Numbered from the stretch's first letter, positions 4,473-55,114 are shown. The stretch: 64,000 nucleotides of DNA from Escherichia coli (GCF_044324785.1 NZ_CP172127.1); one strand, 5' to 3'. Numbers and translations: made by a program. The notes: generated from the letters alone by a model not told the origin.

Positions 4473-6314
<1,842 letters not shown>

Positions 6315-16133: not shown

Positions 16134-17372
16134 TTAATCAGGCTTTGGGCAACGTTGTTCCTTCCAGTTGGCTACCGCCGCAATCCGCCGTCGGGTCAGC
16201 TCCTCGCGAATCTCCACACCTTTAAATCCCGCTTCAACGACCGCTTTTGTCGGCACTGACTGCGCCACTTCCCAGGCTTCGCGCAACCAGCGGCCTTGCG
16301 GGTAGTCCGCTGATTCAAAACCGGTTCTGCCGCGCACGTCAGCCTCGCTGGTCAGCGCCAGTTGCTCGACACGCTGCGGTTTACGCCAGGCGTCAATGGA
16401 ATCAAATAATTTGACGATGGTTTTTGGGTTCAGCATTGGGAAGGTGTGGATGAGATCGTGAAACTCAGCCACCAGTCGGGCTAAATCGCGAATTTCATTT
16501 GGCACGCGCAGACGCTGGCATAGTTGTTCCACTAACTTCACACCCGCCGGGCCATGACCATGATGACGCGGCCAAAGTTCTGGCGGCGTCAGTCCTTTAC
16601 CGAGATCGTGGCATAGCGTTGCGAAACGGACATCGACCTGCGGACTCAGCATCGCCGCCATTGAGAGCGTCATTAAGGTGTGAATACCGGTGTCGATTTC
16701 CGGATGCCACCTGGCAGGGGCCGGAACGCCAAACAGGGCGTCAATTTCCGGGAATAAAACGCGCAGTGCGCCGCAATCACGCAGTACCTGGAAGAACACC
16801 TGGGGATTGCGGGTAGTGAGGGCGCTTTCCGTCTCTTTCCACACCCGTTCAGGCGTCAGGTGTTCCAGTTCACCCGCGTGGATCATCTCGCGCATCAGCG
16901 CCAGAGTTTCATCGGCAATACGAAAACCGAGGTGGGCATAACGCGCAGCAAAACGCGCCACGCGCAGTACGCGTAACGGATCTTCGCCAAAAGCGGGGGA
17001 AACATGGCGCAACAGACGATTTTGCAGATCGCCCAGACCGTTGTACGGGTCGATAATCTCGCCGTTATCGTCCTGGGCCAGCGCATTAATGGTCAGATCG
17101 CGCCGCTTAAGATCATCTTCCAGCGTGACATCCGGTGCGGCATAGCAGGTAAAACCGGTGTAACCGGAACCGGATTTCCGTTCGGTTCGTGCCAGCGCAT
17201 ACTCTTCATGGGTTTGCGGATGCAGAAAAACAGGAAAATCGCGGCCTACCTGCTGGTAGCCCGCGTCGAGCATCTCCTGTGGCGTACTGCCGACTACTAC
17301 CCAATCTCTGTCTTTGACCGGTAGCCCTAACAATGCATCCCGAACAGCACCACCGACCAGATAAATCTTCAC
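16134..17372 (-). CDS. cca: tRNA nucleotidyltransferase (CCA-adding enzyme) with HD domain
   Basis: 412 aa; [28 protein letters not shown]... Confidence 0.96.
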
Positions 17373-17435
17373 GCCATCATCCCTTCGTCAAATACACAAT
17401 TCCTAATAATAAGACAGTGCAACGAAGAAGGCGAT

Positions 17436-18056
17436 TTAGTTCATCCAGCGATCTTTACGTTTACGCGTTGGGATCAGGTGCGGCAGTACCAGGCCGAGCA
17501 GCAAGCCAAGCCCCAGCACGCCACCGCCATACATAAACCACTGCATGATGATGGTGCGCTGTTTGTCATCCAGCTGTACGCTGGCGGCATCGACCTTTTT
17601 CTGCGCGACAATCAGCTCGTTTTTCAGTTTCTGATTTTCTTCTTTTAACCCGTTGATCACGCTGTCGCTCTGCGCCACTTTTTGCTGCATTTCTGCGGTG
17701 CGCTGATTCCAGGTGTTATCGATATTGGTGAGCTTATCGGTCAGGGTTTTGACCTGATTTTCCAGATCTGGCACACGGGAGCGCAGGCTTGGCTCTGTGC
17801 TAAGTTGTTTCAACGGGATCCAGGCGGTACGGCCAGAGCTGTCTTTCACCTGGGCATAATTGGTGTTGGCGTCAGTTTGTAATAAGGTCACTTCCTCGCC
17901 GGCGTTAACCGTGCCCACGAGGCGATAATGGTCTCCCGGACCGCTACGGACCCAGGTGTTCAGTTCGTCAGAAACATAGCGCGTTTCTTCAGCGTGTGAG
18001 ACGGCAGTCGCGCTAAGTGCGAGTAAAGTTAATCCGATCAGGCGTAATTTTGGCAT
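17436..18056 (-). CDS. ygiM: SH3-domain protein YgiM (signal peptide, C-terminal TM anchor)
   Basis: 206 aa; N-terminal signal peptide, coiled-coil, C-terminal hydrophobic segment. Confidence 0.88.
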   Translation of the reverse strand: MPKLRLIGLTLLALSATAVSHAEETRYVSDELNTWVRSGPGDHYRLVGTVNAGEEVTLLQTDANTNYAQVKDSSGRTAWIPLKQLSTEPSLRSRVPDLENQVKTLTDKLTNIDNTWNQRTAEMQQKVAQSDSVINGLKEENQKLKNELIVAQKKVDAASVQLDDKQRTIIMQWFMYGGGVLGLGLLLGLVLPHLIPTRKRKDRWMN

Positions 18057-18297
18057 CAGGCTGTCGTTATTGTCATGGAAAGTGGAACGATAGTAGTGGC
18101 ATCAGTGTCGCTACGCAAAGCATTCGACATCAATCGGAATCCTCTGTGTCAGGTCTTGCCACTGCTTCAAACTTTTACGCCCGTCAAATTGCCCGTTGCA
18201 TGGCAATTTGGCGCAAAATACTATCTACTGACAAAAAAGATCGCATTAAGTTCGCCGTTCATCGTCACTTATGTGACATAACCGATAAGTAAAGGCT

Positions 18298-40323: not shown

Positions 40324-42465
40324 TCAAAATTCCATTTTCACCGTGAATTGCACTGCACGCGGATCGCCAATCTGATTCCCCAGATTATTTGTGGCGATGG
40401 AAGAGGTGTAATACGTTTTATCAAACAGGTTTTTGACGTTTAATTGCAGTGTGACCGGATACTGCAATTTCATTTTGTATGCGGCGAAGGCATCGGCAAC
40501 GAAATAGCCAGGCAGATAATAGTCAGCCCCATTGGTTGCCGAACGACGGCTTACGCCATGTCCACCACCGCCAAACGTCAGTGTGTTATTGCCTGGCATG
40601 TTATGAATGTCATAGGTCAGGAATAGCGAACCGGTATGACGAGGAACATTCGGCAATGGTTTCCCTGCATAATCAGGATCTTCCAGAACCTTAGCATCGG
40701 TATAGCCGTAGCTGGCAATGATATTAATGTTTTCAGTTAATGCTCCCGCAAGGTCGACTTCTACCCCTCTTGAACGAACGCGGCCTGCCGTTTTGGCGAT
40801 GGTTTCATCACCAATACTTTCGGTATACAACACGTTACGTTTATGGATATCAAACAGCGCAATATCTGCGGTTATACCATCGAACAGCTCGAATTTTGCC
40901 CCGACTTCGTAAGCATTAGATGATTCCGGTGGAAGATCTCCGATGTAGCTGGCAATTGACGATTGCGGCATAAATGTTTGCGAATAATTAGCAAATAAGG
41001 ATACCGATGGCGTCAGTTTGTAGACTAACCCCAGTTTGGGCGTCCATTGTTCATCGCGGCTGTCAGTATTGACATTAAAAGGACGGCCTTTACCCGCATA
41101 CTGCGTGTAATACTGATAGCGGATCCCGGCGACGGCAATCCAGTTATCGGTCAGATAGAGCGCGTCCTGTGCATACGCTGAGTAGCTCTCCTGTTTGATC
41201 GTCTGATCACTGTCCGACGCCGAAACCGTTGTGCATTTGCTGGTAATACCATAAACGGGGTTGTAGATATTGAAATCTTTAGCTTTTTTACAGCGAATCA
41301 TATCTGTGCGCAGAAGATCATAATATTCATATGACACCCCACCCAGAATCTCATTATAGAATCCGGCAATATCAACATTCCCTTGCAGATCCGCACGAGT
41401 AGCATGCATACGCTGGGTAGATCCTTGGGTTGCATCAACACGCCGTGTCAGCGTTCCTGTCGTTGCATCATATGCGGTAACACGCGCCTGATTATCGCTG
41501 TATTTATCCTGGCTGTAGCTGTAATCAAAGCGCGCTGTCCACTGGCTATTGAGATGATATTCTGCGTTGAGTTGCGCCAGATCGGACTGACCATCTGTAA
41601 TATTAAACGGTTCGTCAAAACGTATTTTTCGATCAACGTTTACGGGCTGTTTCGTCGTAAGGTCGAAAATCGTTCCACGATCGAACGGAGTTTTATAGTC
41701 CCGATGGGAATAGAGCATGGTTACTGTTGCATTATCACCAAACCAGGTGAGTGACGGGGCAATAAATGTACTGCGCTCTTTACCGAAGTTTCGCCAGTAA
41801 TCTTCATCCTGCACTTCCCCGGTAAGGCGATACGCCAGCTGAGTGCCTTCAATGGGACCTGTGATATCAAGTTGCCCAGTGCCGCCACCAAAACTGGAGG
41901 AGGTGGCTGAAACCGAACCATGGAATGTTTTTTCCGGGCGCTTGGTCACGACGTTAATCAGTCCACCAGGATCGAGAATGCCATACAGCGTGGAGGCCGG
42001 ACCTTTTAGCACTTCCACACGTTCTGTGGCGGCGTTGAAACTGCGAGGAAGTACAGTTCGCAGGCCGTTGGTCATGATGGAGCCATCCCGGTTAGCACCA
42101 AACCCACGACGTACAAAGGCGTCCTGAGTTCCGCCTAATGTATTGGTCTGTACCACGTTACTGACGTTATAAAGCGCTTCATCCAGCGTCGTCGCATTCT
42201 GATTTTCCAGAACCTGATCGCTAACCGTATTGACCACCTGCGGGATATCCAGCATCGGCATATCGGTTAATGTCGCCGTGGAAGTGCTCAGAGGTTGATA
42301 ACCATCGGTCGCCTCAGTTGCGGTATTTGCATCCGCTGTAACAGTGATTGTTTCGCCATCTTTGGTCGTTGCAGTGTCGGTTGCATGAATCATTGGTGCT
42401 GCAAAGAGCAGTGAAAAGAGCGCCCGACCTTTGATTCCTGAGAATGAAGGTGTGAACTTAGCCAT
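40324..42465 (-). CDS. TonB-dependent outer-membrane siderophore receptor
   Basis: 713 aa; signal peptide, plug domain, beta-barrel, C-terminal aromatic residue (...FTVKMEF). Confidence 0.88.
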   Translation of the reverse strand: MAKFTPSFSGIKGRALFSLLFAAPMIHATDTATTKDGETITVTADANTATEATDGYQPLSTSTATLTDMPMLDIPQVVNTVSDQVLENQNATTLDEALYNVSNVVQTNTLGGTQDAFVRRGFGANRDGSIMTNGLRTVLPRSFNAATERVEVLKGPASTLYGILDPGGLINVVTKRPEKTFHGSVSATSSSFGGGTGQLDITGPIEGTQLAYRLTGEVQDEDYWRNFGKERSTFIAPSLTWFGDNATVTMLYSHRDYKTPFDRGTIFDLTTKQPVNVDRKIRFDEPFNITDGQSDLAQLNAEYHLNSQWTARFDYSYSQDKYSDNQARVTAYDATTGTLTRRVDATQGSTQRMHATRADLQGNVDIAGFYNEILGGVSYEYYDLLRTDMIRCKKAKDFNIYNPVYGITSKCTTVSASDSDQTIKQESYSAYAQDALYLTDNWIAVAGIRYQYYTQYAGKGRPFNVNTDSRDEQWTPKLGLVYKLTPSVSLFANYSQTFMPQSSIASYIGDLPPESSNAYEVGAKFELFDGITADIALFDIHKRNVLYTESIGDETIAKTAGRVRSRGVEVDLAGALTENINIIASYGYTDAKVLEDPDYAGKPLPNVPRHTGSLFLTYDIHNMPGNNTLTFGGGGHGVSRRSATNGADYYLPGYFVADAFAAYKMKLQYPVTLQLNVKNLFDKTYYTSSIATNNLGNQIGDPRAVQFTVKMEF

Positions 42466-42563
42466 TTAGTCTGTTATCCCAAAAACTCACGGATTGTCGT
42501 GAGTGAAAATTGTTTCTTGTTGCTCACTAAGCACTATCCGTTTGTTATCTCACCATCGGATAT

Positions 42564-42584
42564 GTAATTGAGAATCATTCAATC
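42564..42584. promoter_or_regulatory. Fur-box-like site in the divergent promoter region between the receptor and the ABC operon
   Basis: gtaattgagaatcattcaatc compared with consensus GATAATGATAATCATTATC; embedded in an AT-rich 370-bp intergenic region. Confidence 0.5.
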
Positions 42585-42838
42585 ATGCGGTGATGTAGTA
42601 GTAAATGAGAAATAACAAAAAATTGCTACATGTGTTTTTATGAGAGGTTAATGCAATTCAATTGATTGTAATTTATTAATATTTAATGGTTTTATTTTTA
42701 TCTTTAAAAATATTTCACCTGTTATTTACCTTGTTTTTGTATGGCTTTTAACTTCTTGACTACTACATTTTGTGGCGTCAAACTCTCAAAGGAGAATGAG
42801 TTTTATTTTTGTTTGTCTTTGATTAAGTTGGCGTACAC

Positions 42839-43648
42839 GTGGCACATAACGCAAAAGGGCAGGGGCTGATCCTCGACAATGTTTCTGCCGGGTATCACAC
42901 GAAAATCATTGTTGATGGTGTTTCTTTCTCCGTTCCCACAGAAAAAATGACCGTTCTGGTTGGGGCAAACGGCTGTGGAAAGTCGACGTTGCTCAGCACC
43001 ATTGCACGTATCTTGCAACCTATGGGCGGCTCGATATTGCTGGATGGTAAAGCGATTCACGAGCAACCAACGAAAGCGTTATCCCGTAGACTTGGGATCT
43101 TGCCGCAGTCGCCATTATTGCCGGAGGGATTAACCGTTTATGAACTGGTGTCGCGTGGGCGTTTTCCCTGGCAGAATTTCATTCGTCAATGGAGCGACGC
43201 CGACGAGCAGGCGGTAGAAGAGGCCCTGAAATTAACCGGTACGCAGGAGTTTGCACATTTACCTGTTGAAAAACTTTCTGGTGGGCAGCGCCAGCGTTGC
43301 TGGATTGCGATGGTGTTGGCGCAAAAGACGCCTTATATCCTGCTGGATGAACCCACAACCTGGCTTGATTTACGTTATCAGGTTGAAATTCTTGAGTTAT
43401 TACATGATTTAACGCGTCATCACGGGCGTACAGTCGTCGTGGTGTTGCATGATCTGAATTTTGCCGTCAATTATGGTGATACGTTGATATTTTTACGCCA
43501 GGGGAAAGTGGTGCGTGTGTTGAATGAGGGGGAACATTGCACGCCTGAGCTGGTAAAAGCTGTCTTTGACGTTGATGTTCACGCATCAATAAATCCTCTG
43601 ACGGGAAAGCCGTTCTTCATGCCGTTTCGTGGTGTAGAAAAAGTATGA
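42839..43648 (+). CDS. ABC transporter ATP-binding protein, FepC/FecE-like
   Basis: 269 aa; Walker A GANGCGKST, signature LSGGQRQR, Walker B ILLDEPT; GTG start at 42839 is the most upstream in-frame start. Confidence 0.88.
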   Translation: MAHNAKGQGLILDNVSAGYHTKIIVDGVSFSVPTEKMTVLVGANGCGKSTLLSTIARILQPMGGSILLDGKAIHEQPTKALSRRLGILPQSPLLPEGLTVYELVSRGRFPWQNFIRQWSDADEQAVEEALKLTGTQEFAHLPVEKLSGGQRQRCWIAMVLAQKTPYILLDEPTTWLDLRYQVEILELLHDLTRHHGRTVVVVLHDLNFAVNYGDTLIFLRQGKVVRVLNEGEHCTPELVKAVFDVDVHASINPLTGKPFFMPFRGVEKV

Positions 43649-44628
43649 TGCGCACAGGGCTGGTTACTGTAATTTTCCTCGCCTTACTGCTGGTGGGATG
43701 CGTGGTATATCCAGGGATTGGTGCCCGATTTATTGCACCACAAACGGTGTTGCAGGCATTTCTTCATTTTGATCCGCAAAACTTCGATCACAACGTAATT
43801 GTAAGACTCCGTTTGCCGCGTTTAGCGGCAGCATTGCTTACCGGTGCTTCTCTTGGAGTTGCTGGTGCTTTGTTGCAGGCTGTCATTCGTAACCCATTGG
43901 GGGAGCCACATATTTTAGGCTTAAATGCCGGAGCCGCTCTTGCTGTCGTTGCTGCCAGTGCGCTTGGGCTGGCCTTTCCGGTTGGACGCCCACTGCTGGC
44001 ATCTACGGGCGGCGCGTTATTGTTCCTGTTGATATTGCTGCTTTCCTCCGCAGGGCGTTCAGGGTTAACGCCAATGAAAGTTACTTTATGCGGCGTGGCG
44101 CTATCGGCGTTCGTGTCCTCAATAACGGCTGCAATCCTGATTCTTGACGAACAAACACTGCTGGCGATGCGGACATGGCTAGCAGGTGATTTAGCGGGGC
44201 AGGATTGGGCGACGCTGGGTACGTCCGCCTGGTTTTCTCTGGGGGGGGTTGTGTTAGCCATTTACCTTGCGCCCTCTCTTAACATGTTGGCACTGGGTGA
44301 TCGCATGGCGCAGGGGCTGGGCGTCTCGGTACTCCGCACGCGAACATTCACTCTGCTTGCGATCGCGTTGCTCTGTGGCGCAGCCGTATCGATTGCTGGC
44401 CCCATTGGTTTTGTCGGTCTGCTAGTACCGCAGATTGTCAGGCGTCTGGTATCTGCGGATCTGCGCGTTCTGCTCCCTCTTTCAGCTTGTGTCGGTGCCT
44501 TACTGCTATTACTGGCAGATATTATTGCCCGGACGCTTTTCACGCCCCATGAGCTGGCGACCGGTGTCATGACGGCGTTAGTTGGTGCGCCCGTTTTTGT
44601 CATTATGGCGACGAGGATGTTCAAATGA
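43645..44628 (+). CDS. ABC transporter permease (FecCD family)
   Basis: 327 aa polytopic membrane protein; start overlaps the upstream stop. Confidence 0.85.
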   Translation: MMRTGLVTVIFLALLLVGCVVYPGIGARFIAPQTVLQAFLHFDPQNFDHNVIVRLRLPRLAAALLTGASLGVAGALLQAVIRNPLGEPHILGLNAGAALAVVAASALGLAFPVGRPLLASTGGALLFLLILLLSSAGRSGLTPMKVTLCGVALSAFVSSITAAILILDEQTLLAMRTWLAGDLAGQDWATLGTSAWFSLGGVVLAIYLAPSLNMLALGDRMAQGLGVSVLRTRTFTLLAIALLCGAAVSIAGPIGFVGLLVPQIVRRLVSADLRVLLPLSACVGALLLLLADIIARTLFTPHELATGVMTALVGAPVFVIMATRMFK

Positions 44629-45674
44629 GTCGGATAATGAACGTCGGGCTACGTCCACTACGTGTTGGTAAGTTTTCGACACTGGTACGCCCTAAAAATC
44701 TGGTGTTGCTTGGTGGGCTGTTTCTGTTTGCGGTTGGAATACTGATATTCGGTCTGATGCATGGTTCTTTTTCTGTCCCGGCATCGGAAGTAGGACGAGC
44801 GTTGTTTGCTCCAGAAAACGTAAGCACAGACGCACGTTATATTGTGCAGGATATTCGCTTGCCGAGAGTCATCATGGCATTGCTATGCGGAGCCATGTTA
44901 GGTATGGCGGGGGCCGCGATGCAATCCATTGCGCGTAACGGCCTTGCCGATCCTGGTTTAATCGGCGTCAAAGAAGGATGTAGCGTGGCGGTGCTGTGGC
45001 TGATTTTCCAGTTTCCAATGCTGGGAATGTTCTGGCGTCCAGTGGCTGGTCTTGCTGGTGGCTTGTTGGTGGCTTTAATCGTGATTTTTTGTGCGCGCGA
45101 TATTTCCCGCCCGCGATTTGTTCTGATTGGTATTGGTGTTTCCTGGTTTTTCGCCGCCGGTATCGGTGTATTTATGACCACTGCAGATGTTCGAGATGTA
45201 CAAACTGCATTGATGTGGTTATCGGGAAGCCTGCATGCAGCTAACTGGATGTTAGTCGGTATTTCAGCCTGTTGGATGTTGCCAGCCGCTCTTTTATTGC
45301 TGTTCACCGCCAGGACGGCGGATATCGCTCTGCTTGGTCATCAGGTGGCAACCGGGTTAGGCGTGAATAGTTCTCGCCTGGCGTTGTTACGTGTCGCCGC
45401 ACCCATAATCCTGACAGCCGTCTGCGTTTCGTGTGTTGGTAACATCGGTTTTGTCGGATTGATAGCACCCCATATATCACGTTTTATTCTACGTGGCGGG
45501 CAGACGACATTACTGCTGGGGAGCGCGGTATCGGGGGCGTTGTTAGTCATCCTGGCGGATAGCATTGGTCGTTTGGCTTTTTTGCCTTTGCAACTGCCTG
45601 CCGGAATCATTATTTCATTGATTGGTGGACCATTCTTTTTGCTACTGCTCTGGCAGCGCAGGAACAGTTTTTAA
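44625..45674 (+). CDS. ABC transporter permease (FecCD family), second subunit
   Basis: 349 aa polytopic membrane protein; start overlaps the upstream stop. Confidence 0.85.
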   Translation: MSRIMNVGLRPLRVGKFSTLVRPKNLVLLGGLFLFAVGILIFGLMHGSFSVPASEVGRALFAPENVSTDARYIVQDIRLPRVIMALLCGAMLGMAGAAMQSIARNGLADPGLIGVKEGCSVAVLWLIFQFPMLGMFWRPVAGLAGGLLVALIVIFCARDISRPRFVLIGIGVSWFFAAGIGVFMTTADVRDVQTALMWLSGSLHAANWMLVGISACWMLPAALLLLFTARTADIALLGHQVATGLGVNSSRLALLRVAAPIILTAVCVSCVGNIGFVGLIAPHISRFILRGGQTTLLLGSAVSGALLVILADSIGRLAFLPLQLPAGIIISLIGGPFFLLLLWQRRNSF

Positions 45675-45684
45675 TGGGAGTTAT

Positions 45685-46632
45685 ATGCGTTTATTTTTTT
45701 CTCTGCTGATACTGTTGTCATTCTTTGCCCGCGCGACAGAACCTGTTCAGGTCTTTACTGATGATTTAGGGCGCAAAGTCACTGTTCCTGCTCATCCAAA
45801 GAGAATTGTCTCTTTACACGATCTTGATATCACTATTCCTCTGATTGAGCTCGGTGTACCTCCTGTCGCCAGCCACGGGCGAACCCGGCCTGACGGTAGC
45901 CATTTCATTCGATCAGGCGCGTTATTGACAGGTGTCGACTTTGATAATTCATCGATCGCTTTTATTGGCACCGCTGATATTGATATTGAAGCGATTGTGG
46001 CGGCAAAGCCTGACCTGATCATCACAGAACCGACCCGTAATACGCCCATTGAACAACTGGAAAAAATTGCGCCCACGGTGAGCATTGATCATCTCAAAGG
46101 CGGCGCGCCAGAAATCTACCGCAAGCTGGCAGAACTTACAGGAACGCAGTCGCAGCTGGCGATACTTGAACGCCGCTATCAGGCACAAATCAATGCGCTG
46201 AAGGCGACGCTGGACAGCCAAAAAATAACGGTATCGGTGATTCAGGCAAATCAGGGAAAAATTAATGTGATGCATAGCTATCATTCGCTGGGGCGGGTAT
46301 TACGCGATGCTGGTTTTCGCTTTCCGCCGCTGATTGAGAGCATTCCTGAAGGTGGGCGAATGGATGTGAGCGCAGAGCGTTTACCTGAACTGGATGCCGA
46401 TTTTGTTTTTGCAACCTGGCGCGGTGACACCGGTGGTAAACCTCAGGATGAGCTGGCAGCAATGGAAAAAGTCATGCCGGGATGGTGTCAGTTTCTGACG
46501 GCCTGTCGTTCCGGGCGCTATGTGCTGATTTCTCGTGAAGAGGCGATTTCTAACTCCTTTGCATCTCTGGGGCTGATGGCTGCGCAGATACAATCACAAA
46601 TTGCGGGACGACCTCTACCGGAGGCTAAATGA
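45685..46632 (+). CDS. Periplasmic substrate-binding protein (siderophore/chelate-binding cluster)
   Basis: 315 aa from ATG 45685 (MRLFFSLLILLSFFARA signal peptide) preceded by aatgggag RBS; track ORF extends upstream. Confidence 0.8.
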   Translation: MRLFFSLLILLSFFARATEPVQVFTDDLGRKVTVPAHPKRIVSLHDLDITIPLIELGVPPVASHGRTRPDGSHFIRSGALLTGVDFDNSSIAFIGTADIDIEAIVAAKPDLIITEPTRNTPIEQLEKIAPTVSIDHLKGGAPEIYRKLAELTGTQSQLAILERRYQAQINALKATLDSQKITVSVIQANQGKINVMHSYHSLGRVLRDAGFRFPPLIESIPEGGRMDVSAERLPELDADFVFATWRGDTGGKPQDELAAMEKVMPGWCQFLTACRSGRYVLISREEAISNSFASLGLMAAQIQSQIAGRPLPEAK

Positions 46633-47516
46633 TCCAGAAAGACAAAACGCGGGTTGATATTTATGGTGAGCGTTTTCGCACTCGCGCGAGTCAGTTAACG
46701 CCTGGGTTAAGAACTGTCGCAAGCTACATTAATGAGCATCGTGAAGTGGTACTCGAGCAAACGGCGATGGAAATTGCGGCCACGTTGAACACTTCCGATG
46801 CCACAGTTATCAGGGCTATACAGGCTCTGGGGTTTGCCGGGCTGCGTGATCTGAAACGCACTCTGGAACAGTGGCTTGGTCCAGCCCTTAGTTCCAGCGA
46901 AAAGATGTCTACGACGGTGAGTAACTTGACGAGCGATGTTAACACCGCAATCGACTTTGTTCTTGAAGGGCATTTGTATACTTGTAATGTCCTGTCAGAG
47001 CCTGAAAACCGCCACGCGCTTGCGCAAGCTGTAGCGTTGTTGGTGCAGGCACGGCAAGTCGCTATTTTTGGCATTGGCGCTTCGGGTATCCTGGCGGACT
47101 ATACCGCACGACTATTCAACCGCATAGGTTTGCCTGCCACGGCACTAAACCGTACGGGTATTGGCCTTGCCGAGCAACTGATCGCGCTTCAACGTGGCGA
47201 TGTTCTGATCATGATGGCGCAAAAATCTGCGCACCGGGAAGGGCTGACAACGCTTCGTGAGGCGAGGCGGCTGGGGATCCCTGTTATTTTGCTGACAAAC
47301 GCGCTGGATTCACGTTTTAGCAAAGACGCCAGTATCGTGATTCATGTTCCGCGCGGGGATGAAAAGGGGAAAACGCCACTACATGGTACGGTATTGTTGT
47401 GCCTGGAAATGATTGTTTGGTCGGTGGCTTCCGCGATGCCGCAGCGTGCGGTTAAAACCATTAAGCGAATTAACGATTTCCATCGGGGTTTGAAAACGGG
47501 AAGAAAGAATGGCTAA
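46629..47516 (+). CDS. RpiR/MurR-family transcriptional regulator (N-terminal HTH, C-terminal SIS domain)
   Basis: 295 aa; SIS-type nucleotide/sugar-phosphate-binding fold recognisable (…VAIFGIGASG…); start overlaps the SBP stop. Confidence 0.8.
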   Translation: MIQKDKTRVDIYGERFRTRASQLTPGLRTVASYINEHREVVLEQTAMEIAATLNTSDATVIRAIQALGFAGLRDLKRTLEQWLGPALSSSEKMSTTVSNLTSDVNTAIDFVLEGHLYTCNVLSEPENRHALAQAVALLVQARQVAIFGIGASGILADYTARLFNRIGLPATALNRTGIGLAEQLIALQRGDVLIMMAQKSAHREGLTTLREARRLGIPVILLTNALDSRFSKDASIVIHVPRGDEKGKTPLHGTVLLCLEMIVWSVASAMPQRAVKTIKRINDFHRGLKTGRKNG

Positions 47517-47905: not shown

Positions 47906-48487
47906 TTAACCAAAAATTTCCACAAGATGCTTGCGATATTCTTCAGTATAGCGGGGAACATCAGGCATTTTTATCACGTCATTAGCGATAAATGTCGGCA
48001 GCGGTTCCATGCCAAGGAATTGGTTTGCTTTATGGAATGGCAGATACACACCGTCAACGCCAACGCCGTGGAAGAACTGATCTTTTTCGGTGAAGGCTTC
48101 CATTGGTGCGTTCCAGGTCAGAGAAAGCATATATTTTTTGCCCTGTACCAGGCCGCCGGAACCGTATTTTTTCGACGGATCTTTGCGGGTACGACCATCG
48201 CTGGCATACAGAGTCCCGTGACCTTCGGTGAATACATCATCAATGTATTTTTTCACTGTCCACGGCGCGCCCATCCACCAGCCTGGCATCTGCCAGATCA
48301 CCACATCAGCCCAGAGAAAGTTTTGTACTTCCGCTTTGACATCGTAGTCGCTGTCGGCGCGAACGATGCGAACATCATGCCCGAGGTCGCGCAGTGTGCC
48401 ATCCGCGACTTCGGTCAGGGTGTTGTTCAGTTGACCATTGGAGTGGGCGAATTTTTTCGCGCCGTTGATAATCAGGATGTTGCTCAT
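47906..48487 (-). CDS. mdaB: NADPH:quinone oxidoreductase MdaB
   Basis: 193 aa MSNILIINGAKKFAHSNGQLNNTLTEVADG... Confidence 0.95.
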   Translation of the reverse strand: MSNILIINGAKKFAHSNGQLNNTLTEVADGTLRDLGHDVRIVRADSDYDVKAEVQNFLWADVVIWQMPGWWMGAPWTVKKYIDDVFTEGHGTLYASDGRTRKDPSKKYGSGGLVQGKKYMLSLTWNAPMEAFTEKDQFFHGVGVDGVYLPFHKANQFLGMEPLPTFIANDVIKMPDVPRYTEEYRKHLVEIFG

Positions 48488-48548
48488 TTTTTAACCTCAA
48501 GGTGAGACGTTTGTCGACTATAGTACGTCACAGAGCGGTACGGTGAAA

Positions 48549-48580
48549 TTAGCAAAATGTGCAAAGTCTTTTGCTAATTT
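48549..48580. promoter_or_regulatory. Perfect 10-bp inverted repeat ATTAGCAAAA-N12-TTTTGCTAAT upstream of mdaB and of the Hcp island
   Basis: attagcaaaatgtgcaaagtcttttgctaat, with an extra direct copy ttagcaaaag immediately 3'. Confidence 0.4.
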
Positions 48581-48736
48581 AGCAAAAGTCTGATCTTGCT
48601 CTGATTCACCGATGCGGGATAAATATTTTCTGAAAATGACAATACTGAAATCAACTTCCTATAAGTTCCCACAGGAGAGATGTATTATGTAAATGATAAA
48701 GTAGTTTTTCGGAAAAAATAATCATGGAGAATATAT

Positions 48737-49216
48737 ATGTCAAATATCATATACTTATCAATTAAAGGAAAAACACAAGGTTTGATCTCTGAGGGCTGTG
48801 GTTCGTATGCATCTATTGGTAATAAATATCAAATAAATCATGTGGATGAAATTTTTGTTTTACAGTTCGACCATTCTTTAAGTCGAGAATATAATGTAGT
48901 GCATCATCCCATAAAATTTTACAAGCCAATAGATAAATCCTCTCCTTTATTAAATGCTGCTCTTTCTGAAAATGAAGAGTTATCAGCTGTATTTAATTTT
49001 TATAGAATTAATTCTGGCGGTTGTATTGAAAGGTTTTACACAATTGAATTGCAAGGGGCATATTTATCGAATATTCTGACTTGTTATCCACACTCAATTA
49101 CACATGCGGGTAATCAACCGGAAGAGGTCATTGTTCTTAATTATAAAAATATAACATGGAAGCACCATATCGCGAGTACGGAATCATATAGCTGTTGGGA
49201 AGAAAGGATTTTTTAA
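48737..49216 (+). CDS. hcp: Hcp-family protein (type VI secretion tube protein), orphan copy
   Basis: 159 aa; conserved Hcp blocks: N-terminal Y-x-I-K-G...QGLI-x-GC, FVLQFDH, HHPIKFYKPIDKSSPLLNAAL, VIVLNYKNITWKH; RBS ggag 7 nt upstream; AT-rich context. Confidence 0.85.
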   Translation: MSNIIYLSIKGKTQGLISEGCGSYASIGNKYQINHVDEIFVLQFDHSLSREYNVVHHPIKFYKPIDKSSPLLNAALSENEELSAVFNFYRINSGGCIERFYTIELQGAYLSNILTCYPHSITHAGNQPEEVIVLNYKNITWKHHIASTESYSCWEERIF

Positions 49217-49218
49217 AT

Positions 49219-49926
49219 ATGAAAAGCGATCTCACTATAAAAAATAGATATTGTACAATTCCACAAACGAAGTTCCGTAAATGGGATGAAATGGACGTTT
49301 TACTCTGGAAGTTAGGAAAAAATGATTCGCGTCGCCGTTCAGGAGTATATTATTTAAATGCTTATAAAGATGCATATGTACAATATAATAGGGACAAAAT
49401 AATTAAACATGCATATGCCGCAGGGATTCGTCCAGAGTTATTGGGCGGCGTGGCCTGGATTGAGTCAGGAGGTATGCCTGAAAATTATAAGTTTCAGATA
49501 TATGAAACAAAAAGAATGATCGGATCGTTAGATATGCCTGAAAATAAAACATCATTTGGCTCAATGGGTATACAAATACGAACCGCAGCGATTACTCTAG
49601 GCCTTGACCCTTCAGAATTAACTACCAGAAATCAGTTAGAGTTAGCGACATGCCTGATGGAAGATGATTTTACCTTTAAAATTGCTGCTACTCATTTAAG
49701 AGATCTTGCCCTTTTTGATTATCCCTCTTCGGCAACACTGTATATGACGAATGAGCAGTATATTATGGCTGGTATTAGATATAATCGTGGTGTTGAACGA
49801 GATTTGGGTTTTTTTATTTATTTAATTAATAATTTGCCTGCGCGTGATACAGATGATTATAAATTCATCTCTTATGGTATGAGGTTGTTAGAGATTAGAG
49901 AACATATCAAAAAATTGATTAATTAG
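49219..49926 (+). CDS. Hypothetical protein with lytic-transglycosylase/lysozyme-like motifs; candidate Hcp-associated effector
   Basis: 235 aa from ATG 49219 (RBS ggaagaaagga); motifs WIESGG, SMGIQI and AGIRYNRG with spacing like the ES / GLMQ / AYNxG motifs of family-1 lytic transglycosylases; start 3 nt after the hcp stop. Confidence 0.6.
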   Translation: MKSDLTIKNRYCTIPQTKFRKWDEMDVLLWKLGKNDSRRRSGVYYLNAYKDAYVQYNRDKIIKHAYAAGIRPELLGGVAWIESGGMPENYKFQIYETKRMIGSLDMPENKTSFGSMGIQIRTAAITLGLDPSELTTRNQLELATCLMEDDFTFKIAATHLRDLALFDYPSSATLYMTNEQYIMAGIRYNRGVERDLGFFIYLINNLPARDTDDYKFISYGMRLLEIREHIKKLIN

Positions 49927-49935
49927 TAATCAGAG

Positions 49936-50265
49936 ATGTTAAAAAAACAACTACTATCAATATTTGAAGCACTATTATACATAATGCTTACTTATTGGTT
50001 AATAGATGCTTTTTTTGCTTTCAATAAGTATGACTGGATGCTTGAGTCGGGAGACAATATTTGCAGTATACCTTCCGTTTCAGGCGAAGATCGTATATTG
50101 CAAGCAATGATTGCAGCATTTTTTCTTCTGACGCCACTTATTATTCTTATCTTAAGAAAACTCTTTATGCGGGAAATGTTCGAGTTTTGGCTATATGTAT
50201 TCACGCTCGTTATTTGTTTGGTTTGTGGTTGGTGGCTTTTTTGGGGACGGTTTATATTTTGCTAA
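49936..50265 (+). CDS. Small 3-TM inner-membrane protein; candidate cognate immunity protein (possibly the YgiZ orthologue)
   Basis: 109 aa with three hydrophobic helices; immediately downstream of the putative effector; AT-rich. Confidence 0.55.
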   Translation: MLKKQLLSIFEALLYIMLTYWLIDAFFAFNKYDWMLESGDNICSIPSVSGEDRILQAMIAAFFLLTPLIILILRKLFMREMFEFWLYVFTLVICLVCGWWLFWGRFIFC

Positions 50266-50269
50266 TAGT

Positions 50270-50306
50270 AAAATCTATGAGAGTCGTTTTAACGGCTCTC
50301 ATAGAC
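50270..50306. terminator. 10-bp-stem hairpin closing the Hcp island, convergent with qseC
   Basis: tctatgagagtcgttttaacggctctcataga. Confidence 0.5.
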
Positions 50307-50313
50307 AGAGAAG

Positions 50314-51663
50314 TTACCAGCTCACCTTCGCCTCAAATCCACCTTGTTCCGCATTCCCAAACTCAACATTCATGCCATGCAATTTGGCGATTCGCTGGAC
50401 AATCGATAGCCCAAGTCCACTGCCGGTAGCGGTTTGTCCGGGTGGGCGATAGAAGCGTTCGCCAATTCTCGCCAGTGCCTCTGGTGTCACACCGGGGCCG
50501 TTATCCCTCACGATGAAATTATCGGCATTCAGCGTGACGTCTACCACGCTGCCCTGTGGACTGTAACGCACGGCGTTATCCAGAAGGTTTCGTACCAACA
50601 AACTTAGCAACAGCGGTTGTCCGGTGCGTTTGATGCCGTGGGCATTGAGTGTCAGTCGCACGTCAATTTTCGCCTGCTGCGCCGTGTGGTAAATATCCAT
50701 CACCGACGATTGCAGGAGATCTTCAAGCGGGATCTCCGCGACGTCCTGAAGGTTATCCAGTGAGTCCAGCCGCGATAGCGTGAGCAGTTGATCAACCAGA
50801 CGAGTAGCACGATCGATTCCGGAATGTAATTGAAGCAGCGCTTTTTTCCGCGCCTGCGGATCATCGTCAGAGAGCTGCGCAACTTCGGTTTGCACTTTCA
50901 GCGCCGTTAACGGGCTACGAAGTTCGTGAGCTGCGTCGGAGGTAAAGCGTCGTTCACGAACCATCATCGCATGTGTGCGGGCGAACAGTTGATTCAACGA
51001 CTCAACCAGTGGACGCACTTCGCTGGGTACGCCCGTCGCGTTTAGTGGTTTTTCCGAGTCAGGGTCACGCATACGTAGTGCCAGCGCCAGTTTGTTCAGC
51101 GGCGTGAGTTCACGACCCAGTAGTACCATCATGATGATTAACATAATCGGCAGTGCGACCAGCCACGGGATCAATTGTCCGGCAACAATCGCCAGCGCCA
51201 TGTCTTCACGGTATTCCCATTCCTGACCAACAACGATGCGATATTTGCCATCAGGTGAGGTCATCCAGACAAAACGCCAGGGATCGTCTTCACCGACCAG
51301 TTGCCCGTCAGCAAAACCTTCCCGCTGATAGCTATAGGGAATATCTTCTCCGTTATCGCCATCGTTAAGGACCATTCTGCCGTCGTGGGTAAAGATGGCA
51401 AAGGTCAGCGCATCGTCATCAACATGACCGTGTTTTAATTTATTTGGCGTCTGTGCCATGCGATCCGCCGCGTTGATTTCGTTGAGATCGAGCGTACTTA
51501 ACCGTTTGGCAAACAGCATCAGTTGGGTGTCGAACAACTCATCGACGTTATCCGTTGTTTGTTTCCAGGCGACAAAGCTGGAAAGCAGCCAGGTCACTGA
51601 GGCCAGAATTAAAAAGATTAGCGTCAGCCTGACTCGCAGACTAAGACGTTGGGTAAATTTCAT
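50314..51663 (-). CDS. qseC: Quorum-sensing/adrenergic sensor histidine kinase QseC
   Basis: 449 aa; two TM segments, HisKA and HATPase_c domains. Confidence 0.95.
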
Positions 51664-52915: not shown

Positions 52916-53398
52916 ATGACAAACCTGACACTGGATGTAAATATTATCGATTTCCCATCAATCCCTGTGGCGATGTTGCCGCACCGCTGTAGCCCTGAGT
53001 TGCTCAACTACAGCGTGGCGAAATTTATCATGTGGCGTAAAGAGACGGGGCTTTCTCCTGTTAACCAAAGCCAGACTTTTGGCGTCGCCTGGGACGACCC
53101 TGCCACCACCGCACCGGAAGCGTTTCGCTTTGATATCTGCGGCAGCGTTAGCGAACCGATCCCCGATAATCGTTATGGTGTGAGTAATGGTGAACTTACC
53201 GGTGGACGTTATGCTGTGGCCCGCCATGTTGGCGAGCTGGACGATATTTCACACACGATATGGGGCATCATTCGCCACTGGCTACCTGCAAGCGGCGAGA
53301 AAATGCGTAAAGCACCGATTCTGTTTCACTACACCAATCTTGCCGAAGGAGTGACAGAGCAGCGACTGGAAACGGATGTTTATGTACCGTTAGCGTGA
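52916..53398 (+). CDS. ygiV: GyrI-like (AraC effector-binding-domain) transcriptional repressor YgiV
   Basis: 160 aa. Confidence 0.88.
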   Translation: MTNLTLDVNIIDFPSIPVAMLPHRCSPELLNYSVAKFIMWRKETGLSPVNQSQTFGVAWDDPATTAPEAFRFDICGSVSEPIPDNRYGVSNGELTGGRYAVARHVGELDDISHTIWGIIRHWLPASGEKMRKAPILFHYTNLAEGVTEQRLETDVYVPLA

Positions 53399-53506
53399 TG
53401 GAGAATCTTTACCGGAGTGTGAGCCACATCACTCGCGATAAGTTTGAGCGAACAATGCCACAGGCGTATTGTTGTCGGGCTTATAATTTCTCCGGTAAGG
53501 AATACC

Positions 53507-55114
53507 ATGTATACGCGAAATTTATTATGGCTGGTCAGCCTGGTAAGTGCGGCTCCTCTCTACGCTGCTGACGTTCCCGCCAACACACCGCTCGCCCCGC
53601 AACAAGTCTTTCGTTACAACAATCATAGCGACCCAGGTACGCTCGACCCGCAAAAGGTAGAGGAGAATACTGCCGCGCAGATTGTGCTGGATCTGTTTGA
53701 AGGTCTGGTATGGATGGACGGTGAAGGCCAGGTGCAGCCCGCTCAGGCTGAACGCTGGGAGATACTGGACGGCGGCAAGCGCTATATTTTCCATCTGCGT
53801 AGCGGTTTGCAGTGGTCAGACGGTCAGCCTCTGACGGCAGAGGATTTTGTCCTCGGCTGGCAGCGCGCGGTTGACCCGAAAACGGCAAGCCCTTTTGCTG
53901 GCTATCTGGCACAGGCGCACATTAACAATGCCGCGGCTATTGTTGCGGGTAAAGCAGATGTTACATCGCTGGGTGTCAAAGCGATGGATGATCGTACTCT
54001 TGAAGTTACGCTTGAGCAGCCGGTTCCTTGGTTCACGACGATGCTCGCCTGGCCGACGCTGTTCCCGGTTCCCCATCATGTCATCGCGAAATATGGCGAT
54101 AGCTGGAGTAAGCCTGCGCATATGGTTTACAACGGTGCCTTTGTGCTTGAACAGTGGGTAGTTAACGAAAAGATTACTGCACGCAAAAATCCAAAGTACC
54201 GCGATGCGCAACATACAGTATTGCAACAGGTTGAGTATCTGGCGCTGGATAATTCGGTCACCGGCTATAACCGCTATCGCGCGGGAGAGGTCGATCTCAC
54301 CTGGGTTCCGGCGCAGCAAATTCCCACCATTGAAAAATCACTGCCTGGCGAGCTACGAATTATCCCGCGTCTGAACAGCGAATATTACAACTTTAACCTT
54401 GAGAAACCGCCATTTAACGATGTGCGGGTGCGTCGGGCGCTATATCTTACGGTTGATCGACAGCTTATTGCGCAAAAGGTACTGGGGTTGAGAACGCCCG
54501 CAACCACGCTGACGCCGCCAGAGGTAAAAGGCTTTAGCGCGACGACGTTCGATGAACTGCAAAAGCCAATGAGTGAGCGTGTCGCGATGGCAAAAGCCTT
54601 GCTGAAACAGGCGGGATACGACGCCTCTCATCCGCTACGCTTTGAGCTGTTCTACAACAAGTACGATCTGCATGAAAAAACCGCGATAGCGTTGTCTTCC
54701 GAATGGAAAAAATGGCTGGGTGCACAGGTGACGCTGCGCACAATGGAGTGGAAAACTTATCTTGATGCCCGACGAGCCGGTGATTTCATGCTGTCGCGGC
54801 AGTCGTGGGATGCGACGTATAATGATGCTTCCAGCTTCCTGAACACGCTCAAAAGCGATAGTGAAGAAAACGTCGGTCACTGGAAAAATGCGCAGTATGA
54901 CGCCTTACTAAACCAGGCCACGCAGATCACTGATGCGACAAAGCGTAATGCGTTGTATCAGCAGGCAGAAGTGATCATCAACCAACAGGCACCGCTGATT
55001 CCTATCTACTATCAGCCGTTAATCAAACTGCTTAAACCCTACGTTGGCGGTTTTCCGCTGCATAATCCCCAGGATTATGTCTACAGCAAAGAGTTGTATA
55101 TCAAGGCACATTGA
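53507..55114 (+). CDS. ygiS: Periplasmic solute-binding protein family 5 (oligopeptide/bile-salt binding) YgiS
   Basis: 535 aa from MYTRNLLWLVSLVSAAPLYA signal peptide. Confidence 0.9.
   Translation: MYTRNLLWLVSLVSAAPLYAADVPANTPLAPQQVFRYNNHSDPGTLDPQKVEENTAAQIVLDLFEGLVWMDGEGQVQPAQAERWEILDGGKRYIFHLRSGLQWSDGQPLTAEDFVLGWQRAVDPKTASPFAGYLAQAHINNAAAIVAGKADVTSLGVKAMDDRTLEVTLEQPVPWFTTMLAWPTLFPVPHHVIAKYGDSWSKPAHMVYNGAFVLEQWVVNEKITARKNPKYRDAQHTVLQQVEYLALDNSVTGYNRYRAGEVDLTWVPAQQIPTIEKSLPGELRIIPRLNSEYYNFNLEKPPFNDVRVRRALYLTVDRQLIAQKVLGLRTPATTLTPPEVKGFSATTFDELQKPMSERVAMAKALLKQAGYDASHPLRFELFYNKYDLHEKTAIALSSEWKKWLGAQVTLRTMEWKTYLDARRAGDFMLSRQSWDATYNDASSFLNTLKSDSEENVGHWKNAQYDALLNQATQITDATKRNALYQQAEVIINQQAPLIPIYYQPLIKLLKPYVGGFPLHNPQDYVYSKELYIKAH

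Follow-up and report, generated by a model that had tools for sequence, protein, structure and literature searches.

A predicted lysozyme-like toxin encoded between an orphan hcp and ygiZ in Escherichia coli

We analyzed a 64,000-nucleotide (nt) stretch of an Escherichia coli chromosome (GCF_044324785.1 NZ_CP172127.1), referred to here as the window, whose positions serve as coordinates for all of its features. Between an orphan hcp gene and ygiZ, this DNA encodes a 235-amino-acid (aa) protein that is probably a type VI secretion system (T6SS) cargo effector, namely a glycan-cleaving toxin of lysozyme-like fold against which the membrane protein YgiZ would provide immunity. Systems in which a T6SS glycan-cleaving effector is encoded next to its immunity gene are well known; the sequence family of this effector and its membrane-embedded partner are not described in the library that we searched.

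Sequence motifs and conservation

The effector open reading frame (ORF) runs from an ATG to a TAG. The same start codon is annotated by RefSeq in collinear genomes, where the product is a ‘hypothetical protein’ of 236 aa (WP_000834027). A longer ORF with a TTG start at 49195 overlaps hcp and differs from the annotated start. The window allele is one codon short, carrying TAG (49924-49926) where the common allele has a Glu codon followed by TAA, and shows five further substitutions relative to the commonest allele, with the catalytic residues intact.

A sequence-only reading of this DNA had singled out three strings in the protein, and translation places them as claimed: WIESGG at residues 80-85, SMGIQI at 115-120 and AGIRYNRG at 184-191. 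The first separation, given as about 35 residues in that reading, is 35, and the second, put there at about 65, is 69. In an alignment of 135 homologues that reaches down to ~25% identity, E82, G85 and G191 are invariant, and S112 (134/134), Q119 (133/134) and G114 (131/134) are near-invariant, while T111, R187, Y188, N189, Y219 and G220 are conserved in at least 93% of the sequences. The sole invariant acidic residue is E82 (codon at nt 49462-49464), for which we predict the role of catalytic acid/base; at D167, 92% of the sequences have an acidic residue. With this conservation across the 135 homologues, the three strings mark the conserved core of a real family and are not chance occurrences.

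Hydropathy analysis of the whole effector found no signal peptide and no transmembrane segment, which agrees with the earlier claim that a signal peptide is absent. The maximum mean Kyte-Doolittle value is 0.87 for 19-residue segments of the whole protein and 0.16 for 11-residue segments of the first 40 residues.

Predicted fold and relation to lytic transglycosylases

A phmmer search of 1.84 billion cluster representatives returned 311 clusters at E ≤ 1e-3, many of them containing proteins of 300-935 aa in which the match to the effector lies at the C-terminus. Close homologues (54-98% identity) are confined to the Enterobacterales (E. coli, Pectobacterium, Erwinia, Serratia, Chania and Citrobacter). 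The effector matched no family in NCBIfam or PADLOC, and its matches among PDB sequences were chance ones to light-harvesting proteins only. It does match an unnamed PHROG family, phrog_11932 (E 2e-29), and a tblastn search of 50,697 deposited phage genomes found no homologue; the members of phrog_11932 may derive from prophage-like or Mu-F/portal-fused toxins, and a portal-protein fusion is indeed listed in AFDB50.

A first AlphaFold2 model, built from 26 close homologues, was mediocre (predicted local distance difference test score, pLDDT, of 72) and gave Foldseek matches at E ≥ 0.04 that already drew the lytic transglycosylase MltE and the T6SS effector Tse3. The model built from the 135-sequence alignment has a pLDDT of 91.7 and a predicted template modeling score of 0.88. 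It predicts a mostly α-helical, lysozyme-like catalytic fold, as the sequence-only reading had anticipated; MltE and Tse3 are among the Foldseek matches, and the structural neighbors all act on polymeric glycans. In this model, the helix formed by residues 72-82 terminates at E82, in keeping with a catalytic Glu of an E-S motif at a helix end, and the motif II region is predicted to form a β-hairpin followed by the start of a helix. The closest AlphaFold-database entry comes from an O25b:H4 strain, and some close homologues in AFDB50 (for example, E. coli A0A376NUM0, 91% identity) have been automatically named ‘Transglycosylase SLT domain-containing protein’; most are ‘Uncharacterized’.

Profile-profile comparison points to the same superfamily. 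Aligned by hhalign as a domain-only alignment with E. coli MltE (E 2.8e-4), the effector places A-W-I-E82-S-G-G-M-P on I-A-I-E64-S-G-G-N-P, so that the two share the identical string I-E-S-G-G-x-P; E64 is the residue replaced in PDB structures that bear the title ‘MltE inactive mutant E64Q’. An alignment with the catalytic domains of K-12 MltE, Slt70, MltC and MltD (86% probability, E 5.2e-6, 131 columns) brings E82-S83 into register with the E-S motif, P87 with the conserved Pro and Y188-N189-x-G191 with AYNxG. In a Pfam scan restricted to the homologous domains of 42 distant relatives, SLT (PF01464) was the sole recurring family, with one domain at 1.8e-5 and seven at ≤ 0.1. Weak Ntox3 matches in long homologues vanished when the homologous domain was scanned alone and hence belong to other regions of these proteins. 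A sub-threshold alignment with Tse3 puts the invariant Glu of the effector on the Glu of Tse3 A-E-Q and TSFG on Tse3 TSIG.

The likeness to the motifs of family-1 lytic transglycosylases that the sequence-only reading had proposed is thus borne out for ES and AYNxG. The likeness in spacing calls for a caveat: the distance from the Glu to GLMQ is 15 residues in Slt70 and MltC and 32-37 (about 35) in the effector, because the latter carries a 17-residue insertion (Q93-N109). The insertion is modeled as a helix, and a similar one is present in Tse3. Taken together, the profile alignments and the model support the assignment of the effector as a single-domain, divergent member of the goose-lysozyme/SLT (GH23-like) superfamily.

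Linkage to Hcp and other delivery modules

The ATG of the effector gene lies 2 nt past the hcp stop codon and is preceded by AAGGA. The hcp product, labeled ‘Hcp family type VI secretion system effector’ in RefSeq, is presumed to be a tube protein or chaperone that carries the effector. An Hcp of 159 aa (56-60% identity) also precedes the effector homologues of Pectobacterium, Serratia and a further locus (L007), and the arrangement of hcp, effector and a DUF2645 gene (the family of YgiZ) recurs as a triad between pagP and eamA in Pectobacterium and on Serratia plasmids of 75-112 kb. Another genome carries a triad beside polB, in which the third gene encodes a 109-aa membrane protein that is below Pfam detection. 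In all, four other genomic contexts preserve the triad, in unrelated surroundings.

Two homologues are tied to the secretion machinery more directly. One (42% identity) is encoded immediately after tssA-tssB-tssC-hcp, on a contig that also carries tssJ, tssK and tssL, and the other is a 361-aa protein with an N-terminal PAAR domain; a DUF2645 gene comes next in both cases. Among distant relatives, the effector domain forms the C-terminus of proteins with eCIS_core (11), PAAR (2), RHS, WXG100 and Mu-F domains, and other relatives join it to the peptidoglycan-binding OmpA (5) and PG_binding_1 domains. Read from the sequences, this pattern of fusion and linkage is characteristic of polymorphic-toxin cargo that is directed against the cell wall. 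Considering (i) the adjacency to hcp, (ii) the recurrence of the triad, (iii) the homologue within a T6SS cluster, and (iv) the fusions to PAAR and other modules, the protein is more likely to act as a toxin after secretion than as a housekeeping autolysin. The part of the sequence-only reading that had cast it as a T6SS effector therefore gains support from the adjacent hcp, the conserved triad, and the in-cluster and PAAR-fused homologues.

The metagenomic T6SS cluster that contains the in-cluster homologue (L025) also encodes an Amidase_2 protein (4788-5417) and, behind a DUF2169 adaptor, a Tox-PAAR-like/phospholipase-like protein (16912-18261), so that several effector types are present in one cluster. 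In a metagenome gene call of 325 aa (P0002), an Hcp Pfam domain is joined to a part that covers 96% of the effector at 97% identity; because the hcp and effector frames differ in the window, this call is probably a frameshift or assembly artefact and not a true fusion.

The DUF2645 partner

The effector stop codon and the start of ygiZ are 9 nt apart. YgiZ displays hydrophobic peaks centered near residues 15, 64 and 94 and no soluble periplasmic domain, and we presume from its sequence that it is a three-pass inner-membrane protein that serves as the immunity protein. Its Lys-rich N-terminus would face the cytoplasm, and a loop of ~25 residues (N-K-Y-D-W-M...N-I-C) together with a C-terminal Cys would lie on the periplasmic side.

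A DUF2645 gene follows the effector domain in eight independent contexts, which include Pectobacterium, Serratia, a second E. coli locus, the PAAR-fused and in-cluster homologues and two metagenome contigs; wherever a neighbor of an effector-domain gene is readable, it is usually DUF2645. Divergence is more rapid in the partner than in the effector or Hcp, with identities of 38, 35 and 26% against 61, 55 and 42% for the corresponding effectors. Seven of the eight partners have both the Cys of the N-(I/V)-C loop motif and a Cys at the C-terminus (residues 43 and 109 of the window YgiZ), and the remaining one (L018) has neither. This co-occurrence hints at a periplasmic disulfide that would tie the loop to the C-terminus.

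Distribution in E. coli

We surveyed 5426 complete E. coli genomes. A megablast search with positions 48500-50320 found the region in 5425 of them and the full stretch at ≥ 95% identity in 1261, so that hcp and the effector gene are carried by 23% of the genomes, ATCC 25922 being one of the strains with the island. By comparison, ygiZ is detectable in 4597 genomes (85%), and this wider spread than that of the toxin is the pattern expected of orphan immunity genes. In K-12 MG1655, the blastn match to the window extends to 48668 and resumes at 49958, and the 160 unrelated bases that lie between these points contain no remnant of hcp or the effector gene. The K-12 and window YgiZ proteins are ~92% identical.

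A second E. coli locus, located between yjeM and mscM, encodes a paralogous effector of 237 aa (34% identity, E 1e-40) followed by a DUF2645 gene of the YjeO family. The full arrangement was found in 45 of the 5426 genomes (L009:3574-6028, L023:1708-4129); a further, truncated YjeO-family gene and an IS630 fragment lie upstream. Of this arrangement, K-12 has kept only yjeO (L022:2394-3019), along with yjeN, whose product is unrelated to the paralogous effector and was ruled out as a fragment of it. Considering this locus and that of ygiZ, both K-12 DUF2645 genes therefore sit where other strains carry a toxin.

Proposed mechanism and its alternatives

We infer the following course of events, from secretion and periplasmic toxicity to the bond cleaved and the immunity function of YgiZ. 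The effector, having no signal peptide, would be synthesized in the cytoplasm alongside its dedicated Hcp, whose gene lies 2 nt upstream, and would probably be carried in or on the Hcp tube. Upon injection into the periplasm of a neighboring Gram-negative cell, it would cut the β-1,4 bonds that join N-acetylmuramic acid (MurNAc) to N-acetylglucosamine (MurNAc-β-1,4-GlcNAc) in the glycan strands of peptidoglycan, with Glu82 as the single catalytic acid/base. Cleavage would proceed either by lytic transglycosylation, which gives a 1,6-anhydro-MurNAc product, or by Tse3-like hydrolysis. The producer and its kin would be protected by the three-pass YgiZ in the inner membrane.

Several observations weigh against this proposal. 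A Pfam search with the effector itself gave no SLT match even at E ≤ 10, and the best matches of the family profile in the PDB, Tse3 (E 0.08, not significant) and MltE (E 0.6-0.9), are sub-threshold. In the hhalign register, G114 falls on the Gly of GLMQ but Q119 lies two residues past the SLT Gln; motif II is therefore analogous, not demonstrably homologous, to GLMQ, and the equivalence drawn in the sequence-only reading appears to be approximate only. Immunity proteins of T6SS cell-wall effectors such as Tsi3 and Tgi act in the periplasm, where they block the active site or the substrate groove (PMC6099711). A three-pass partner that has a ~25-residue periplasmic loop would be expected more typically for toxins that target membranes, and the inner-membrane immunity protein that had been invoked to fit a periplasm-acting effector is thus atypical for a toxin of the cell wall. 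Within the library searched, ygiZ, DUF2645 and yjeO are not linked to the T6SS by any publication. T6SS core genes are absent from the 64-kb window, and the AT-rich locus may be silenced; the promoter of K-12 ygiZ, described as the gene of an inner-membrane protein, needs activation by BglJ-RcsB (PMC3950696).

The chemistry of cleavage is the point at which the closest alternative departs from lytic transglycosylation. With the same delivery and fold, the protein could be a hydrolytic muramidase like Tse3 (Tge1), in which water instead of the MurNAc C6-OH resolves the intermediate and leaves reducing MurNAc ends. The two activities are indistinguishable from sequence, and the nearest structure, that of Tse3, belongs to a hydrolase (PMC6099711), yet the significant profile-profile and Pfam links lead only to SLT-type lytic transglycosylases, just one acidic residue is invariant, and the I-E-S-G-G-x-P string is identical to that of MltE, so we consider hydrolysis possible but rather doubtful. 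The topology of YgiZ raises a different question, that of the substrate. Were the lysozyme-like domain to act on a membrane-bound glycan on the outer side of the inner membrane, for example lipid II or nascent lipid-linked strands of peptidoglycan, an integral-membrane immunity protein would be explained, and the conserved partner would expose only a short loop and its C-terminus to the periplasm and remains paired with the effector across delivery modules. We retain this alternative mainly because YgiZ is atypical for cell-wall immunity, and regard it as improbable: it is drawn purely from the topology of the immunity protein, while the fusion of distant relatives to the sacculus-binding OmpA and PG_binding_1 domains suggests mature peptidoglycan as the substrate, and all structural neighbors act on polymeric glycans.

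Two further explanations dispense with a toxin in current use. The orphan hcp and its neighbor could be an inactive relic, no longer secreted or expressed owing to the lack of a compatible T6SS or to silencing by H-NS, and without a present role. The missing core genes, the AT-rich DNA and a promoter and terminator scan in which promoter-like sites did not exceed the number expected by chance are consistent with such decay, as is the place of ygiZ among the K-12 loci activated by BglJ-RcsB (PMC3950696). The three ORFs are, however, intact and ≥ 95% identical in ~1250 genomes, the catalytic residues are preserved, and the module is maintained across genera and on plasmids, which makes a relic quite unlikely. 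Lytic transglycosylases are also said to open the producer’s own wall for T6SS assembly, a role proposed for MltE in enteroaggregative E. coli and for TagX in Acinetobacter. The SLT-like fold and the proximity to hcp would suit a housekeeping enzyme of this type, but the effector has no signal peptide, lipobox or membrane anchor with which to reach its own periplasm, is followed by a conserved immunity-like gene, contains a domain that PAAR, RHS, eCIS, WXG100 and Mu-F proteins carry as C-terminal cargo, and is missing from the majority of ygiZ-positive E. coli genomes. We consider this explanation highly improbable.

Beyond the glycan-cleaving T6SS toxin that we favor, a broader interpretation can be put forward tentatively: the DUF2645 proteins, K-12 YgiZ and YjeO included, could constitute a new class of T6SS immunity proteins, which would be tiny, three-pass and probably equipped with a disulfide between loop and C-terminus, and which would counter an undescribed family of SLT/Tse3-like toxins. 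Most E. coli strains would then retain such proteins as orphan immunity against a toxin found in about a quarter of strains, and the membrane-embedded antidote might mean that the toxin acts at the membrane surface, with lipid-linked or nascent peptidoglycan and not the mature sacculus as its substrate.

If the proposal is correct, a function would be assigned to a ‘hypothetical protein’ gene found in ~23% of complete E. coli genomes, and the few T6SS effectors that cleave glycan would gain a new sequence family. The K-12 genes ygiZ and yjeO would acquire a testable role as orphan immunity genes that bears on competition between strains in the gut. A lysozyme-like toxin whose immunity protein is a polytopic membrane protein would be unusual and could reveal a new mode of neutralization or a membrane-proximal substrate. 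As the same toxin domain is reused by PAAR, Rhs, extracellular contractile injection system (eCIS), type VII secretion system (WXG100) and Mu-F routes, its biochemical assignment would transfer widely.

The locus and its surroundings

The features of the locus are listed in Table 1. The mean GC content of the island, ygiZ included, is 0.338, compared to 0.514 for the entire window. Along the collinear RefSeq genome TUM1886, the genes follow one another as parE, a TonB-receptor/FecCD/RpiR block, ygiN, mdaB, hcp, ‘hypothetical protein’, ygiZ and qseC-qseB, with hcp, ‘hypothetical protein’ and ygiZ on the strand opposite to mdaB.

Table 1 Features of the hcp-effector-ygiZ locus in window coordinates
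Feature	Position	Strand	Description
AT-rich island with hcp, effector gene and ygiZ	48450..50250		GC content 0.29-0.40; flanks 0.48-0.56
Segment absent from K-12	48669..49957		hcp promoter region, hcp, effector gene and first 22 nt of ygiZ
hcp (tssD), orphan, 159 aa	48737..49216	+	TIGR03344 VI_effect_Hcp1, E 4.5e-59, full length
Effector gene, 235 aa	49219..49926	+	Predicted divergent SLT/lysozyme-like (GH23-type) domain, no signal peptide
Motif I, W80-I-E82-S-G-G85	49456..49473	+	E82 and G85 invariant in 135 sequences; aligns with MltE E64
Motif II region, T111-S-F-G114-S-M-G-I-Q119-I	49549..49578	+	T111, S112, G114 and Q119 conserved ≥ 94%
Motif III, A184-G-I-R-Y188-N189-R-G191	49768..49791	+	R187, Y188 and N189 ≥ 93%, G191 invariant; Y-N-x-G on AYNxG
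ygiZ, 109 aa, DUF2645	49936..50265	+	PF10840, E 1e-10; three hydrophobic peaks

Two further differences from K-12 lie near the locus. The interval between parE and ygiN (40324-47516) contains genes for a TonB-dependent siderophore receptor, an ABC ATPase, two FecCD permeases, a substrate-binding protein and a MurR/RpiR regulator; in K-12, ygiN directly adjoins parE. At 52916-55114, ygiS directly follows ygiV, and there is no mqsR-mqsA toxin-antitoxin pair, which in K-12 comes between the two. In TUM1886, a gene for an aryl-sulfate sulfotransferase and dsbL- and dsbI-like genes lie between ygiD and ygiC (L014:28530-31698).

Comparison with known systems

Several described loci and proteins were considered as counterparts and set aside. 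The ‘hcp2B’ operon of avian pathogenic E. coli is a different locus (hcp2B-vgrG2-xmtU/V), the orphan Hcp of Shiga toxin-producing E. coli is an Hcp-ET nuclease, the effector of a structural-bioinformatics study of the T6SS is SleB-like, and PseM has an unrelated fold.

Pseudomonas aeruginosa Tse3/Tge1 (PDB 4luq, 4m5e and 3wa5) is a T6SS glycoside hydrolase of peptidoglycan whose identity to the effector is 13%, at an E value of 0.08 that is not significant. With ~400 aa and an extra N-terminal domain, it is considerably larger than the 235-aa effector. Its immunity protein Tsi3 inserts into the Tse3 substrate groove in the periplasm (PMC6099711), whereas the partner of the effector is a 109-aa three-pass DUF2645 protein; with its three hydrophobic segments, this neighbor likewise differs from Tgi-type immunity proteins, which are periplasmic and occlude the active site. 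The family-1 lytic transglycosylases (MltE/EmtA, Slt70, MltC and MltD; PF01464, GH23) are housekeeping autolysins, whereas the effector is not exported by the Sec/Lol route and sits in a presumed toxin-immunity cassette; it also differs from them in its failure to match the SLT model, in the 17-residue insertion and in the Gln of GLMQ being out of register.

The effector resembles Acinetobacter baumannii Tse4/Tae17 and the SleB-like T6EC3 as a putative T6SS-delivered toxin that cleaves glycan strands with a single essential Glu; we saw no relationship to either at the sequence level. Tae17 acts as a lytic transglycosylase (PMC11796386) and, unlike the effector, is bifunctional (transglycosylase and amidase) and VgrG-dependent. 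T6EC3, which becomes non-toxic upon the E108Q substitution (PMC11148199), has a SleB fold, which defines another lytic transglycosylase family, and is paired with an immunity protein that has an N-terminal signal for periplasmic localization. The same domain as that of the effector occurs at the C-terminus of polymorphic toxins from many phyla, in which it is fused to the delivery module, whereas the form found in the window stands alone beside hcp.
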